DNA of 64,000 nt, taken from positions 1,152,001 to 1,216,000 of the forward strand of contig CAVXJS010000021.1 in the NCBI GenBank assembly GCA_963762145.1. Reading direction: 5' to 3'. The stretch is from an uncultured Candidatus Rokubacteria bacterium. GTDB lineage: Bacteria > Methylomirabilota > Methylomirabilia > Rokubacteriales > CSP1-6. Below the pieces are notes generated by a model that was given only the letters and a program-made list of their open reading frames with translations, searched no databases and had not been told where the DNA came from. Below, in pieces: positions 2,881 through 40,127 of this stretch; position 1 is the first letter of the stretch, and each line of letters starts with the position of its first letter. The translations under genes and the position numbers were made by a program.

Positions 2881-5272
<2,392 letters not shown>

Positions 5273-34469: not shown

Positions 34470-34976
34470 ATGGCACGAGACGGCCTCCTGATCGGTGAGG
34501 TAGCGGGGAAGAGCGGAGTTAGTCGCAAGGCGCTCCGTCTGTACGAAAAGGCCGGCATTCTGCCGCCCCCTCGGCGCACCGGGTCGGGCTATCGGATGTA
34601 TGGCCCGGAGACGCTGGGCCTACTCGGGTTCGTCACGCAAGCGCGCCGGCTCGGCTTCCGACTCGAGGAAATCAAGCGCATCGTTGTGCTCAAGCGGTCG
34701 GGCCGAACGCCCTGTAAGCACGTCTTAGACCTCGTTCAGCTAAAGCTGAACAACATCGACCAAGCGCTCACGGACCTGGCAGAAGTCCGGGGGCAGCTTC
34801 GCGGGCTGCTCCGGTCCTGGCAGTCCCGCCGACACCGTTTTGCCGCTGTCTGTCCCTGTATCGAGCATCTAACCATCGTGAAGGGAAGGGAGGTGAACCA
34901 GAATGGAAAATCGCAAGGTGTCGCTGTGCCCAACCGGGTGTGGTCAGTGCCCAGACGTGGAGATGGCCGGCGATGA
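34470..34976 (+). CDS. MerR-family metal-responsive regulator
   Basis: IGEVA..SGVS.KALR.YE, GYR.Y, ARRLGF.LEEI, PC..V, C-terminal CPCIE; true end may be earlier. Confidence 0.88.
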   Translation: MARDGLLIGEVAGKSGVSRKALRLYEKAGILPPPRRTGSGYRMYGPETLGLLGFVTQARRLGFRLEEIKRIVVLKRSGRTPCKHVLDLVQLKLNNIDQALTDLAEVRGQLRGLLRSWQSRRHRFAAVCPCIEHLTIVKGREVNQNGKSQGVAVPNRVWSVPRRGDGRR

Positions 34977-35178
34977 GGTGCGGATCGGCGAAGCAGGGAA
35001 CCTCGCCGTCCTCAAGAAGGACGAATGGAACCTGCTCGTTGATCTGATTCAGTCCGGTCAGTTGACGAAGGTCTCGCGGTCCCAAGGAGTGTGGGCCCGC
35101 ACGAGTGGCAGGGGGAGCGATCCTCACCACTCGTGTTGCCTGCCTTTCGGATTCAACCTAAACGACGCTACCTCGTAG
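34903..35178 (+). CDS. Small Cys-motif protein (CPxxCxxCP)
   Basis: GGAGGT RBS; MENRKVSLCPTGCGQCPDV...IGE.GN...L.KDEWN.LV. Confidence 0.65.
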   Translation: MENRKVSLCPTGCGQCPDVEMAGDEVRIGEAGNLAVLKKDEWNLLVDLIQSGQLTKVSRSQGVWARTSGRGSDPHHSCCLPFGFNLNDATS

Positions 35179-35908
35179 CGCACACCTCAGCCGCGGTCAC
35201 GCGAGGGTCCTTGCATCGTGCGTTTCGCGTCGTGCGCAGTATGACAGCCTCACGGAACCCAGCCTCGCGGAACTCGCTCAGGAAGGTCACGCCTTCCTTG
35301 GCTCCGGCTACTCAGGCAAACCACTCTGCTTCGGTGAAATGGTCTGGTTTCGATACAGCTTCTTCTAAGACTAACTCCGCGACGTAGACGTGTCCCCCCG
35401 GCCGTACGACCCGCGCGAGTTCTCGGAAGATGTCCGCGCGAGCGGGATTCAAGTTGAAGATGCCGTTCACGAGCGCCACGTCTACCGAGGCGTCGTCTAA
35501 CGGTAGTCGTTCGGCGTCACCCTGGTAGAAGGTCACTACATCGACGCCAGCCTCAGCGGCAGCGTGTCGGGCACGGGTGAGCATCGCCTCGCTAAAGTCG
35601 ATACTGGTGACTCGGCCGGTGGGACCTACACGTCTCGCCAAGATGAGGCTGTCGAGTCCCGCCCCGCATCCGAGGTCGAGAATTTGAGCATCGGTAGGGA
35701 TCGGTGCGGACAGAGCTAAGGTCGAAACTCCCGCGAACGCCTCGACGGCCACGAGGGGCAGCGCGTCGAGCAGGTCGGCGGGGTAACCCAACCGCTCGGC
35801 CAACACTCGACCTACGGGGAAGGCGTGCTTCTGCGCGGGCCGTTCAGCGGCAGCAGAATAGGCGTTATGGACTGCGTTCCTGAGTTGTACTGAATCGTGG
35901 TTTGGCAT
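35168..35908 (-). CDS. ArsM-like SAM-dependent methyltransferase, predicted selenoprotein (UGA at 35312-35314)
   Basis: LDLGCGAG, GDAE.LP, RV..PGG; reading through UGA gives EWFA-U-VAGA...EAGF and 47 more codons to TAG. Confidence 0.8.
35280..35298 (-). promoter_or_regulatory. Bacterial SECIS-like hairpin
   Basis: AGGAAGG-CGUGA-CCUUCCU perfect 7-bp stem, 13 nt after the UGA. Confidence 0.65.
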
Positions 35909-36203
35909 GGGCCGGCACCCCCACGAGATGGTTAGTCGTATCGGAGGTGACTATAGCTCCAGCCATATCTGATCGCAAATGCCTATAGTCGAGTGCGTGG
36001 CTACGGCTTGTACCGAACCAGGTCAATCCAGAACGTGTCCGGTTGCGTGTAGCATATCCAGCCCCCGCAACCAATAAATGAGCGGTTAGCCAGGATCGGC
36101 TGACTCCTCCTCGTTTCTGTCCGTGTTACTGTCCGCGATCAGAATGAAACAGGAAGAATGGCAGGTCATCGCTAGAGAGGCCTGGCCGGTCCGGACTCGC
36201 CCC

Positions 36204-36647
36204 TCAGCGGGCGGGCGGCCCGGCCGCCGGAGGCATGCGCACACGCCACCACATGTTCAGCACGAAGAGAGCGGTTCCGGCAAGCTGGCCGAGCCCACCC
36301 AGCGCGATGAGCCACCGCAGGCCGAGCGCTCCCGCCAGCGCCACGCTGATCTCGGCCGCGGCGCGCAGTGCCGTCGAGATCGCCATCACCCAGTAGACAG
36401 CCTCCGCCAGCTCGGGCCGGTAGCGCGTGTCGTCGCGCGCGGGGCGCGGGAACATCCAGGTGGCGACGCCCATGACCATCATCAGCATGAAACCGACGAG
36501 CAGCAGGTGGGCGTGAGCCGTGATGAGCAGGCGGGGCGGATACGCGTCGAGGACGAATTGGCCGACCACGATGTAGGCCCCGATGAGGAGCCCTGCGAGT
36601 AGGAAGACGAAGCTGGTCTTGATGTATCGCCGGATCAGCGGGGTCAT
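36204..36647 (-). CDS. Four-TM membrane protein with H-x-H motif (heme-copper oxidase subunit I-like fragment family)
   Basis: AHAHLLLVGF...GVA.WMFPR. Confidence 0.7.
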   Translation of the reverse strand: MTPLIRRYIKTSFVFLLAGLLIGAYIVVGQFVLDAYPPRLLITAHAHLLLVGFMLMMVMGVATWMFPRPARDDTRYRPELAEAVYWVMAISTALRAAAEISVALAGALGLRWLIALGGLGQLAGTALFVLNMWWRVRMPPAAGPPAR

Positions 36648-37351
36648 CCTTCGTCGGCCTCGCCCTCGGCTATCGCGCTGAGCCCTGCCCAGTCCGTAAG
36701 GACGAGCCGGCCGCCGTCATCATCGAGGACGCCGTCCCGGACCCAGCGACTCATGGTCCGAATGGCGGTCTCCACCGTGGTGCCGGTCATGTCGGCCAGG
36801 CTTTGCCGGGTGAGGTGAAACGGCAGCGTCACGCCCTTGTCGCCCCACGCCCCTTCGCGCTTCGCGAGCCGCAGCAGGGCCGCGGCCAGGCGTGCCTCGA
36901 CCGGATCCACCGCGAGGGAGGCGACCGAGTCGTGGGCGGCCCGGAGCCGCCGGCCGATCATGAGCGCCATCTCCTTGATGAAGGCGGGATGCCGCTCGGC
37001 GAGCGCAATCACAGGATCGGCCGGGATCTTCAGCACCACCGTGGCCTCGGTGGCCTGAGCGGAGGCGGGATAGGGGCGCTTCTCGATCACGGCCACGCCG
37101 CCGAAGATCTCGCCCGGCCCCAGAAGCTCGAGGACCACGTCCTTCCCCGTCCTGGAATGCCTCACGATCTTCACGTGGCCCGATCTCACCAGGTAGAGCC
37201 AGCGCGCGGCATCGCCTTCCATGAAGATCTCGCCGCGGGATCGATGCGCCTCCTCCCGTGCGACTCGCGCGAGGGACTCGAGCTCGCGCGCCGGAATACC
37301 GGCGAACACCGGGTTCCCACCCAGGAACGCGACGATCTCCTCGGGGGACAT
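36644..37351 (-). CDS. Crp/Fnr family regulator (Dnr/HcpR-like, no FNR Cys cluster)
   Basis: IF.EGD, G.VKI, GEIFG, YPASA, LTRQ.LADM.GTTVET.IR. Confidence 0.92.
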   Translation of the reverse strand: MSPEEIVAFLGGNPVFAGIPARELESLARVAREEAHRSRGEIFMEGDAARWLYLVRSGHVKIVRHSRTGKDVVLELLGPGEIFGGVAVIEKRPYPASAQATEATVVLKIPADPVIALAERHPAFIKEMALMIGRRLRAAHDSVASLAVDPVEARLAAALLRLAKREGAWGDKGVTLPFHLTRQSLADMTGTTVETAIRTMSRWVRDGVLDDDGGRLVLTDWAGLSAIAEGEADEG

Positions 37352-37467
37352 CGGCGGCAGGATAGCACGAGGCCTGTCGCGAGATTGCCCCTGGAGATGC
37401 GGCGCCGGCGCCTCAGGCGACCGTGCACGGGTGCCTCCAACTGCATGAATTCGCGACGATCCCGTGC

Positions 37468-37483
37468 TGGCACCTCGCGTGCA
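37468..37483 (+). promoter_or_regulatory. sigma54 promoter
   Basis: TGGCACCTCGCGTGCA; IHF-like 37438-37450 (minus); UAS-like GCGG-N8-CCTC 37399-37414. Confidence 0.7.
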
Positions 37484-37510
37484 CAAAGCACAAGCCAGGG
37501 AGGACGAGTG

Positions 37511-37990
37511 ATGCGACGGATCGCGGGGCTGCTGTTCCTGGGACTCATGACTGCAATGCCGGACGGGGCGGGCGCTACCCCACCGATCATCGATGGCCCC
37601 ACGGTTCTGGAGCGGTCGCCCGCCGCGATCCAGGCGTCCCTGGGTGAGCCCGTCCGCACCAAGACCGTGCCCCCGGGAGACTTCCGCCTGCCCGACGGCG
37701 GCATGGCCCGCGTCTACACCGGGCGCGGGACGCAGATCGATGTCGACTTCGTGGGGGAGCGGAGCACCACGGTGGTCATTGCATTTCCCGACGCCACCGT
37801 CGCACCCAGGACCTACGAGGCCGCGCTCGAAGCAGTCAATCTCCGCCCCGGTCCGCCACCCGACGTGGTCACCCGAGACAGCCGGGAATGGCACGGTCTC
37901 GGGGGTTACTACTTCGTGCGGGTGATCGCCGCGTACCCGGCGCTCGACCACATCGACGCGATCATCTTGAGTATCCACCCGCTCCCCTAG
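37511..37990 (+). CDS. Exported hypothetical protein
   Basis: GGAGG RBS, signal peptide MRRIAGLLFLGL. Confidence 0.7.
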   Translation: MRRIAGLLFLGLMTAMPDGAGATPPIIDGPTVLERSPAAIQASLGEPVRTKTVPPGDFRLPDGGMARVYTGRGTQIDVDFVGERSTTVVIAFPDATVAPRTYEAALEAVNLRPGPPPDVVTRDSREWHGLGGYYFVRVIAAYPALDHIDAIILSIHPLP

Positions 37991-38006
37991 ACCGTCGGTC
38001 CGCCGA

Positions 38007-38050
38007 CTATGACCCCTGTCATAGGACGCCCCGTCCGGCCGCGGTAGCGT
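38007..38050 (+). promoter_or_regulatory. Crp/Fnr box with class II promoter
   Basis: CTATGAC-CCCT-GTCATAG palindrome; -10 TAGCGT at 38045 puts the site centre at about -41.5. Confidence 0.7.
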
Positions 38051-38068
38051 GAGGCGAGGAGGAATGAC

Positions 38069-38320
38069 ATGACACACGAATGCAGTTGCCGTCACGAAGT
38101 GCCGATCGCCCCAGGACAGCCCCTCCCGCCCGTCCGCCCCGAGCAGACCGTCGCGGACATCGCGCAGCATCGGGTCGGGGGGCTCGAGACGATGAAAGAG
38201 ATGGGGATCAATCACTGCTGTGGGGCCCACCTCACCCTGCAGGAAGCGGCCGCGGCGGCGGGCGTGCCCCTCGACGCGTTGCTCGCGGCGCTCAACGAGC
38301 GGTCCAAGGCACCCGCATGA
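38069..38320 (+). CDS. DUF542/ScdA_N domain protein
   Basis: TVADIA......E.M...GI.HCCG..LTL.EAA...GV. Confidence 0.8.
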   Translation: MTHECSCRHEVPIAPGQPLPPVRPEQTVADIAQHRVGGLETMKEMGINHCCGAHLTLQEAAAAAGVPLDALLAALNERSKAPA

Positions 38321-38832
38321 TGCCGGGCGACATCCCCGTGTCGCAAGTGCACCTCGACGTGCGGGAGGACATCCGCCGGGGTCACGAGCCGCTCGCGCGC
38401 ATCATGGCCGCAGTCAAGGCGCTCGCCGACGACGAGGCGCTGGTGCTCCGCGCCCCGTTCGAGCCGATCCCGCTCTACGACGTACTCGGCAGGCGCGGCT
38501 TCGCCCACCGCGCGGAGCATCGCGCGCCCGACGACTGGTCAGTCACCTTCTACCGGGGCGCCGCCGCGCTGCGCCCCGAGCCGGCGCCGGTACCCGCGAC
38601 ACCGGCACGCCGTCGCACAGTGCTGGATGTCCGGGGCCTCGAGCCACCGCAGCCGATGCTGCGGGTGCTCCAGGAGATCGACCGACTCGGCCCGTCTGCC
38701 GAGCTGGAGGTGCGTCACGATCGTCGCCCCGTCTTCCTCTATCCCCAGCTCGAGGAGCGTGGTCTCGTCCACGAGACCGACGAGCCTGAGCCGGGACTGG
38801 TGCGCATCCTCATCCGGAGGGACGCGGGGTGA
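38317..38832 (+). CDS. Tandem DUF2249 protein
   Basis: LDVREDIR.G.EP..RIM, PFEP.PLY; LDVRGLEPPQPM, DR.P.FLY..L.ERG. Confidence 0.85.
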   Translation: MMPGDIPVSQVHLDVREDIRRGHEPLARIMAAVKALADDEALVLRAPFEPIPLYDVLGRRGFAHRAEHRAPDDWSVTFYRGAAALRPEPAPVPATPARRRTVLDVRGLEPPQPMLRVLQEIDRLGPSAELEVRHDRRPVFLYPQLEERGLVHETDEPEPGLVRILIRRDAG

Positions 38833-40127
38833 GCCAGCCGCAGCCGCGTCCCGCGAGCGGCGTCTCACCGGTGGTCCCCCTCGCCTATCTGGTCTGTGCC
38901 GCGATCGCATTCCTCGCGGCCGCGCCAGGCGTCGCGTGGCTCGCGCCCGAGCTGGGGGGCCACTACTACCATCCGCGGCTGCTCGCTCTCACCCACACCG
39001 TCACGCTGGGGTGGATCACGCTCGCGATCATGGGCGCCAGCTACCAGATCATCCCGATCGTGCTCGAGCGCGAGATCTGGAGCGAGCGGCTCGCGCGCTG
39101 GCAGCTCGCCATCCTCGCCGTAGCGGTGACGGGCATGGTCGCGCATTTCCAGCTCGGCACCTGGCCCGGGTTGACCGCGGCCGCGGGTCTGCTGGCCATC
39201 GGCATCACGATCCATCTGCTCAATGTCGGCATGAGCCTGCGGGGCTTCACCCGGTGGACGTTCACCGCCCGCCTCGTCGTCCTGGCCTACGGCGGGCTCG
39301 CGCTCACGACTCTCTTCGGTCTGGCGCTGTCGGTCAACCGCGTATGGCCGTTCCTCCCGGGCGAGACGTTTCCGACGTTACACGCCCACGTGCACCTGGC
39401 CCTCCTCGGCTGGGTGGCGCCGATGATCCTCGCGGTGGCCGCGCGCGTGTACCCGATGTTCTTCCTCGCCCCCGCGCCACGGCCCTGGCACTCCTTCGTG
39501 CAGCTCTGGGGGCTGACCGTCGGCGTGCCGGCGGTCGTGGTGGGCTTGCTCGCCGCGCCCGGCCTGCTCATCCCGGGAGCGCTGGCCGTGGCCGCGACGG
39601 CGGCGGCGCACGCGGCCTGGATCGGCGAGATGGCCGGTGCACGGAAGCGGCCCGGCCTCGACTGGGGGCTCCGCTTCGTCCTCACCGCCACCGTGTTCCT
39701 TGCGCCGGCCGCGCTGCTCGGCGTGGCGATGGCGACGGATCGTCTTGCGGGGCCTCGCGTGGCGCTCGCCTACGCCGTCCTCATCCTCGGCGGGTGGGTC
39801 TCACTCACGATCGTCGGCATGATGCTCAAGATCGTCCCGTTCCTCGTCTGGTACCGCGTGTACAGTCCGCGGGCCGGCCGCGAGCCGGTGCCAACCCTCG
39901 CCCAGCTCTCCTGGCCGCGGGCTGAGGGCCTCGCCTATGGGCTCCTGACCGGCGGCGTCGTGTTGCTGGCCGCGACGGTCCTGGTGGGCGAAGTGGTCTG
40001 GATCCGCGCCGCGGGGACGATGCTGGCGCTGGGCGCGCTCGCCTTCGCGGCGGCGCTCGCGCGGGTTCTCGGATATCTGTCCATGCGCGCCCGGACATGG
40101 TCTCCGCATACGCGAAGGGTCGCGTAA
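38829..40127 (+). CDS. Multi-TM membrane protein with conserved His (oxidase subunit I/NnrS-like)
   Basis: LTH..TLGW....MGA.YQ..P, HAHVH...LGW, G...KIVPF..W. Confidence 0.75.
   Translation: MSQPQPRPASGVSPVVPLAYLVCAAIAFLAAAPGVAWLAPELGGHYYHPRLLALTHTVTLGWITLAIMGASYQIIPIVLEREIWSERLARWQLAILAVAVTGMVAHFQLGTWPGLTAAAGLLAIGITIHLLNVGMSLRGFTRWTFTARLVVLAYGGLALTTLFGLALSVNRVWPFLPGETFPTLHAHVHLALLGWVAPMILAVAARVYPMFFLAPAPRPWHSFVQLWGLTVGVPAVVVGLLAAPGLLIPGALAVAATAAAHAAWIGEMAGARKRPGLDWGLRFVLTATVFLAPAALLGVAMATDRLAGPRVALAYAVLILGGWVSLTIVGMMLKIVPFLVWYRVYSPRAGREPVPTLAQLSWPRAEGLAYGLLTGGVVLLAATVLVGEVVWIRAAGTMLALGALAFAAALARVLGYLSMRARTWSPHTRRVA

Follow-up and report, generated by a model that had tools for sequence, protein, structure and literature searches.

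Does an ArsM-like methyltransferase gene of an uncultured Candidatus Rokubacteria bacterium end at a TGA codon, or is that codon read as selenocysteine (Sec) within a longer protein? The gene lies on the minus strand of the window, by which we mean the whole stretch of 64,000 nucleotides that was analyzed. Under translation table 11 the ORF has 198 aa (35908..35312, minus strand) and a C-terminus reading ...EWFA-TGA; when the TGA is read through, 47 more sense codons (VAGAKEGVTFLSEFREAGF...) lead to a TAG and the product has 246 residues, with Sec (U) at position 199. A first-pass annotation made from the sequence letters had described both an ORF stopping at EWFA-UGA and a frame that stays open for 47 codons to a TAG, and both are present as described. 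Its proposal of a Sec-dependent methyltransferase is supported by a column shared between Cys and TGA codons, by homology past the TGA, by the Sec machinery of the genome, and by matching contigs from other studies. We conclude that the UGA of this gene is almost certainly read as selenocysteine. The features of the locus are:

35168..35908, minus strand: coding sequence of the predicted selenoprotein, 246 residues, with ATG at 35908-35906 and the TAG stop at 35170-35168.
35312..35314, minus strand: in-frame TGA (Sec199), at the column of the conserved Cys of W-x-x-C-x-x-G-A, equivalent to Cys224 of CmArsM.
35280..35298, minus strand: SECIS-like hairpin AGGAAGG-CGUGA-CCUUCCU, with a 7-bp stem, a 5-nt loop, a 13-nt spacer, a UGA-to-loop distance of 20 nt and an energy of -9.0 kcal/mol.
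35171..35311, minus strand: post-Sec region of 47 codons (residues 200-246), backed by homology, selection and a structure model.
35950..35978, minus strand: promoter-like TTGCGA-17-TATAGT, 42 nt upstream of the ATG; a consensus match only (1 found vs. 0.3 expected).
35165..35181, minus strand: terminator-like hairpin with a T-rich tail, overlapping the TAG; a consensus match only (1 found vs. 0.8 expected).

The terminator-like hairpin thus sits where the long frame ends rather than just behind the TGA.

Homologs carry either a TGA or a cysteine codon at one and the same column. Searching 61 genomes in six frames (60 relatives plus the one that holds the window) gave 64 matches at E <= 1e-20, with a match in 46/61 genomes (G029 counted), and 13/64 matches contain one in-frame TGA. 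TGA-bearing orthologs at 95% (G011), 84% (G008), and 68% (G024) identity each align to query residue 246. Among 21 loci of this search that were aligned (five further TGA-bearing matches fall outside the alignment), the TGA of 8/8 TGA forms occupies the column of the Cys in 13/13 other forms, and the motif around that Cys in homologs is W-x-x-C-(V/I/L)-(A/G/S)-G-A. Of 80 loci from named genomes, 19 have TGA at this column, 56 have Cys, 1 has Thr, and 4 are unaligned there. When both sets of loci are pooled, the column is TGA in 27 and Cys in 69, and the TGA forms span several phyla. The Cys/UGA pairing that the annotation had named as a check on its reading is therefore found. Homologs that end at the TGA, which it had named as evidence to the contrary, are not what we observe: homology extends to residue 246 both in the orthologs and in nine other-phyla loci (L063-L070 and L103), which are full-length relatives at 52-63% identity with TGA in 9/9 cases. 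These come from Anaerolineae, Planctomycetota, Rokuibacteriota, Terriglobales, Bryobacteraceae, Dehalococcoidia, Anaerolineales, and two uncultured "proteobacterium" MAGs. A metagenome ortholog of 246 aa (P0113) has Cys at position 199 and aligns over its full length, including the same C-terminal tail, at 57% identity.

Two irregularities among these loci deserve mention. In L103 (Anaerolineales MAG, 4001-4519) the TGA is present and the methyltransferase domain is partly unaligned around position 149, a gap that may be a deletion or a frameshift. Separately, ArsM-like genes with one in-frame TGA each occur in tandem as L037/L056 (G001:C336:3954-5391) and L038/L057 (G005:C24:19036-20416); both pairs are in same-genus relatives, and one gene per pair is in the alignment.

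The codons after the TGA evolve as coding sequence. In comparisons with three relatives, the region downstream of the TGA shows 10 synonymous vs. 1 non-synonymous changes (L034, dN/dS 0.03), 26.8 vs. 6.2 (L035, dN/dS 0.03), and 23.5 vs. 15.5 (L036, dN/dS 0.12). Before the TGA the same comparisons give dN/dS of 0.10-0.17, such that the downstream part is at least as constrained. Because synonymous changes far exceed non-synonymous ones after the TGA, we infer that the extension is translated and under purifying selection in the methyltransferase frame. Across residues 200-246, 30/47 positions are invariant in a five-sequence alignment. An antisense ORF of 98 aa (window 35091-35387, plus strand) overlaps the Sec site; the low dN/dS of the methyltransferase frame marks it as a likely shadow ORF.

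Independent assemblies agree on the codon itself. Over 35100-35501, TGA included, contigs from two other studies (runs X6 and X13) match the window without a single differing letter, and a contig of X9 has 1 other letter relative to the window. The TGA is not an assembly error, and the TGC or TGG that the annotation had suggested reads might reveal is not seen. The matching contigs all come from soil or rhizosphere metagenomes. The one cDNA-labeled run aligned here, X16, is flagged "probably DNA" and covers 35677-35900, with the TGA outside that interval.

A perfect 7-bp hairpin with a G-containing loop 13 nt past the UGA, as reported in the first-pass annotation, is present at 35298..35280. 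The bacterial SECIS (bSECIS) model, in the form given in section 5 of PMC13188914, specifies a loop of 3-9 nt, a stem of 4-16 bp, a G in the first two loop positions, a distance of 16-37 nt from UGA to loop, and MFE <= -7.5 kcal/mol. The window hairpin lies within all of these published constraints. Taken alone, it is weak evidence: a qualifying hairpin follows 90/1199 (7.5%) of the TGA trinucleotides sampled from the window, and one as good as the window's follows 44/1199 (3.7%). What takes the hairpin beyond chance is its conservation. When the best perfect-stem hairpin within 60 nt 3′ of the codon is taken for each locus, the bSECIS constraints hold in 20/27 TGA forms vs. 1/69 Cys forms, and the remaining 7/27 TGA forms fall outside the perfect-stem criteria. 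Mean stem energy is -9.1 kcal/mol in TGA forms vs. -2.8 kcal/mol in Cys forms, a difference for which a Mann-Whitney p-value is too favorable because the forms are related and unequal in G+C.

Stem sequences also vary among TGA forms. A second clade (L037-L039, L071, L072) has a different stem at the same place, GCUCU(C/G)CU-GGA-...AGAGU (GCUCUCCU-GGA-GGGAGAGU), in L070 two base pairs have changed in a compensatory way compared with the AGGAAGGC/GCCUUCCU stem, and L063, L064, and L066 have G-U changes in the stem. We rely on this comparative test because the folding energy of the whole 71-nt stretch is no better than that of shuffled sequences (z -0.54). An Rfam scan of the hairpin region assigned no family, its sole match being a chance-level miRNA model (E 0.79). 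The stem overlaps the conserved codons K-E-G-x-x-F-L, and conservation of the hairpin within the subfamily may come in part from protein constraint.

A genome without Sec machinery would have spoken against the annotation, and the machinery is in place. On contig C9 of the genome, selA (577 bits) and selB (363 bits) lie together with a tRNA-Sec whose anticodon is TCA (69 bits), and selA, selB, selC, and selD all score above curated cut-offs. The selB, selA, and tRNA-Sec genes (L001, L009, L016) lie within ~5 kb of one another (G000:C9:751777-756726). The selD gene (L010, G000:C11:419505-420437) itself contains an in-frame TGA (...ACAGU-ASK); a palindromic hairpin of 8 bp with a GAUC loop comes 13 nt further on, and the 13-nt spacing is common to the Sec sites of selD and of the methyltransferase. 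Among five relatives carrying the TGA form, selA is found in four; it was not found in G005 (92% complete).

Two accounts of the codon do without selenocysteine. One holds that the TGA is a real stop, the gene being a pseudogene, the source of a truncated 198-residue methyltransferase, or the product of a sequencing error. Gene callers using table 11 do end there, among the best 120 database relatives 119 cover <=80% of the query (P0113 being the one full-length protein), and 4/4 truncated relatives examined end at ...EWFA. Set against this, the TGA recurs at one column in 27 loci of several phyla, dN/dS after it is 0.03-0.12, the Cys ortholog is full length, and the contigs of two other studies are identical at the TGA. 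Residues 200-246 form one helix and two strands in an AF2 model, and a 198-residue product would miss that helix and the last two strands. We consider a real stop extremely improbable. The other account has a near-cognate or specialized tRNA recoding UGA to cysteine or tryptophan. [quoted passage not shown] Such recoding is very unlikely.

What kind of enzyme carries this residue? The protein scores above the Pfam gathering scores of Methyltransf_31 (99.5 bits), Methyltransf_25 (85.9), and Methyltransf_11 (83.7), and it is a class I SAM-dependent methyltransferase with a Rossmann-type domain. Its AF2 model has a pLDDT of 90.8 (about 70 over residues 181-200). The ten best matches of the model in the PDB are all ArsM chains (CrArsM, CmArsM), with human AS3MT at rank 12 (TMq 0.62-0.73). 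At the family level, the arsenite methyltransferase model NF008823 (PRK11873) gives 150.1 bits, under its 263-bit cut-off, which two controls pass: a classical all-Cys ArsM in the same genome (L025, G000:C11:576350-576916, 366.8 bits) and L106 of Clostridium senegalense (300.8 bits). Scores for NF041537 (170.5 bits, cut-off 510), NF047649 (159.4, cut-off 460), and NF041536 (145.2, cut-off 575) are likewise below threshold. The 246-residue protein has no second domain and no second Sec, and it is not a double selenoprotein.

The protein retains one of the cysteine positions of ArsM, in the form of Sec. Cys72, Cys174, and Cys224 of CmArsM are the arsenic-binding residues; structure titles name C72A and C224A mutants. 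In an alignment to CmArsM, U199 falls on C224 within W/Y-x-x-C-x-x-G-A, G149 on C174, and V60 on the residue-72 column; the chain aligned is the C72A mutant (Ala at 72), and V61, which is invariant, aligns one column further on with an insert Gly. Equivalents of Cys72 and Cys174 are missing, and the N-terminal region contains no Cys. The replacements that the first-pass annotation had picked out (NGIFNL for NCVINL and FAGVS for GCG) appear both in the translated sequence and in the alignments. The N-terminal Cys pair is absent from 8/8 aligned TGA forms, as are the cysteines of GCGNP and SNCVINL. Positions invariant in a 23-sequence alignment of the Cys174-less group include N148, G149, W196, position 199, and G202. 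Cys232 was considered as a resolving cysteine or family feature and rejected, as it is conserved only in the window's own lineage, with Thr or Arg elsewhere.

Sec is concentrated where the Cys174 equivalent is absent. At positions 199/149, the 80 named-genome loci include 17 TGA/Gly, 10 Cys/Gly, 46 Cys/Cys, 1 TGA/Cys (L106, a classical Sec-ArsM), and 1 TGA/unaligned (L103), counts that are biased by enrichment for the Gly form because ALVNGIFN was one of the two search patterns. Among loci of this set with Cys at position 149, 1/47 has Sec. A quick IQ-TREE tree of 90 rows (11/101 were dropped for a short alignment or for having no Cys or Sec at 199) contains a main clade without the Cys174 equivalent (29 rows, support 98), with 21 Sec and 8 Cys rows, the latter from Campylobacterota (7) and Thermoplasmatales (1). 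The window's subfamily forms a group of 13 rows, all with Sec (support 100), and 13/13 lack an equivalent of Cys72, an equivalent of Cys174, and the N-terminal Cys pair. The Sec label requires 5 changes on this tree. The Campylobacterota Cys forms without the Cys174 equivalent (L084, L089, L094, L095, L099, L100, L104) carry a Cys at two positions ahead of the conserved Val (CAAVGNP) and also show the motif WANCV(A/E)GT.

The product is, very probably, a SAM-dependent methyltransferase of 246 residues that belongs to the ArsM/AS3MT lineage, with UGA199 decoded as Sec through SelB, tRNA-Sec, and the hairpin, and with a single selenolate that would most likely capture a soft substrate. SelB and tRNA-Sec would insert selenocysteine at codon 199 under the direction of the hairpin 13 nt downstream, and Sec199 would occupy the metalloid-binding Cys224 position next to an intact SAM-binding Rossmann domain. 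The selenolate would most likely hold the substrate by one Se-X bond and present it to the methyl group of SAM for a predicted methyl transfer; the substrate could be a thiol, a chalcogen species, or a metalloid that is partly thiolated or already carries methyl groups. Judging from the alignments, capture of As(III) by three protein thiolates, as in classical ArsM, cannot operate here because the protein has neither the N-terminal Cys pair nor equivalents of Cys72 and Cys174. The annotation's suggestion of a substrate other than arsenite is reasonable, since no member of the clade has the other ArsM cysteines.

How far the chemistry departs from that of ArsM can be read in two further ways. 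The protein could be a true arsenite methyltransferase in which Sec199 binds As(III) and the other ligands come from glutathione, another thiol, or a partner subunit, with arsenic methylation still its role in the cell. Among solved structures, ArsM and AS3MT come closest in both fold and sequence; in NCBIfam, ArsM-type models match it best; the Sec aligns with the As-binding Cys224; and the JGI label for truncated relatives is "arsenite methyltransferase." The NF008823 score of 150.1 against a cut-off of 263 (366.8 for L025 and 300.8 for L106) weighs on the other side, as do the loss of the remaining cysteines in 13/13 subfamily rows, the presence of a canonical ArsM in the same genome, and a lack of ars genes among 10 flanking ORFs in the window and 10 ORFs of five other loci; on balance this reading is unlikely. 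More speculatively, the single-Sec ArsM-like branch might be a distinct enzyme class for one-ligand substrates, with selenium selected as one selenolate replaces three thiolates. Its substrates could then include dimethylated or thiol-complexed As or Sb, organomercury, selenide, tellurium species, and thiols. That idea would explain why Sec is dominant in the Cys174-less clade (21/29) and rare in the classical branch (1/47) and why a classical ArsM is retained, and we think it distinctly improbable as it stands. The preferred reading remains a Sec199 methyltransferase that would capture a soft substrate through one selenolate.

Selenocysteine at this position is not in itself new. In PMC13188914, Table 1 has the entry "Arsenite methyltransferase, NF008823, UxxG, 1 Sec" under experimentally verified, with Fomenko et al. 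2007 as the reference. The table also contains three fused ArsM-type UxxG selenoprotein families, citing Haft and Tolstoy 2025. A Sec-containing arsenite methyltransferase family also appears in a table of PMC9312934, and the GOS paper (PMC2398784) counts arsenite S-adenosylmethyltransferase (arsM) among the selenoprotein families of prokaryotes and eukaryotes. Sec at the Cys224 equivalent of ArsM-type methyltransferases (UxxG) is already cataloged, since Fomenko et al. 2007 according to PMC13188914. The main text of the BSepDB paper (PMC13326102) contains neither "methyltransferase" nor "arsenite," and its supplements may list the subfamily.

The stand-alone 246-aa branch differs from these families in that it is without the other ArsM cysteines, fails the cut-offs of the NCBIfam models that it matches, and is cut short in public gene calls. 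With the Sec-containing arsenite methyltransferase it shares fold family, Sec position, and motif (U-V-A-G in the window), and the TGA of L106 falls at the same column. L106, however, keeps GCGNP and SNCVINL and passes NF008823, whereas in the window protein V and G replace those cysteines and the N-terminal Cys pair is missing. The SAM domain and the Cys224 loop align with those of CmArsM, CrArsM, and human AS3MT (4fr0, 4fsd, 6cx6, 5evj, 8xt7); these solved proteins have 300-390 residues, a further C-terminal domain, and four conserved cysteines, whereas the window protein keeps only position 224, as Sec, and ends at residue 246. It resembles the fused families NF041537 (ArsM/AhpD), NF041536 (ArsM/DUF2284), and NF047649 (methyltransferase/UXPK-star), to which residues 3-227 align, including U199 and UxxG, but has neither their second domain nor a second Sec and remains below their cut-offs. 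One locus, L074, reaches 369.7 bits with NF041537 with its methyltransferase domain alone and, like the window protein, has Gly at the Cys174 position. P0113 lacks the same cysteines as the window protein, from which it differs by Cys in place of Sec and by Thr where the window's lineage has Cys232.

For annotation, the true product has 246 residues, not 198, and its branch is cut short almost everywhere in public gene calls and escapes the arsenite methyltransferase and selenoprotein models of NCBIfam that it matches. A database protein of 426 aa (P0006) has a long, probably spurious N-terminal extension and still ends ...EWFA before the UGA. The branch hints at a chemistry unlike classical arsenite methylation in soil bacteria of several phyla. 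Sec at the remaining metalloid-binding position, in 21/29 Cys174-less rows, offers a defined target for assays of metalloid and chalcogen methylation.

The methyltransferase gene stands alone, and there is no operon clue to its substrate. Downstream and convergent lies a regulator of the heavy-metal MerR type (34470-34976, plus strand) that is below the cut-offs of the CueR, MerR, and ZntR models. Its 3′ end is overlapped by a Cys-rich ORF of 91 aa (CPTGCGQCP) with no family match, the two spanning 34470-35178 on the plus strand. Genes for a small membrane protein and for a Crp/Fnr regulator lie upstream. Only the 95% relative (G011) retains the MerR-type regulator, the 91-aa ORF, and orf149 together, and G008 retains only orf149; in the loci compared, no neighbor conserved across phyla was found. 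Pfam assignments for 10 flanking ORFs at five other loci (CcmF, AAA ATPase, LysR, methyltransferase, B12/radical SAM, VTT, response regulator) are unrelated. The wider upstream region of the window (36204-40127) encodes a COX1-like small membrane protein, Crp/Fnr, ScdA_N (DUF542), DUF2249/TusA, and a 432-aa COX1-like protein, a cluster that may be a nitrosative or oxidative-stress unit.
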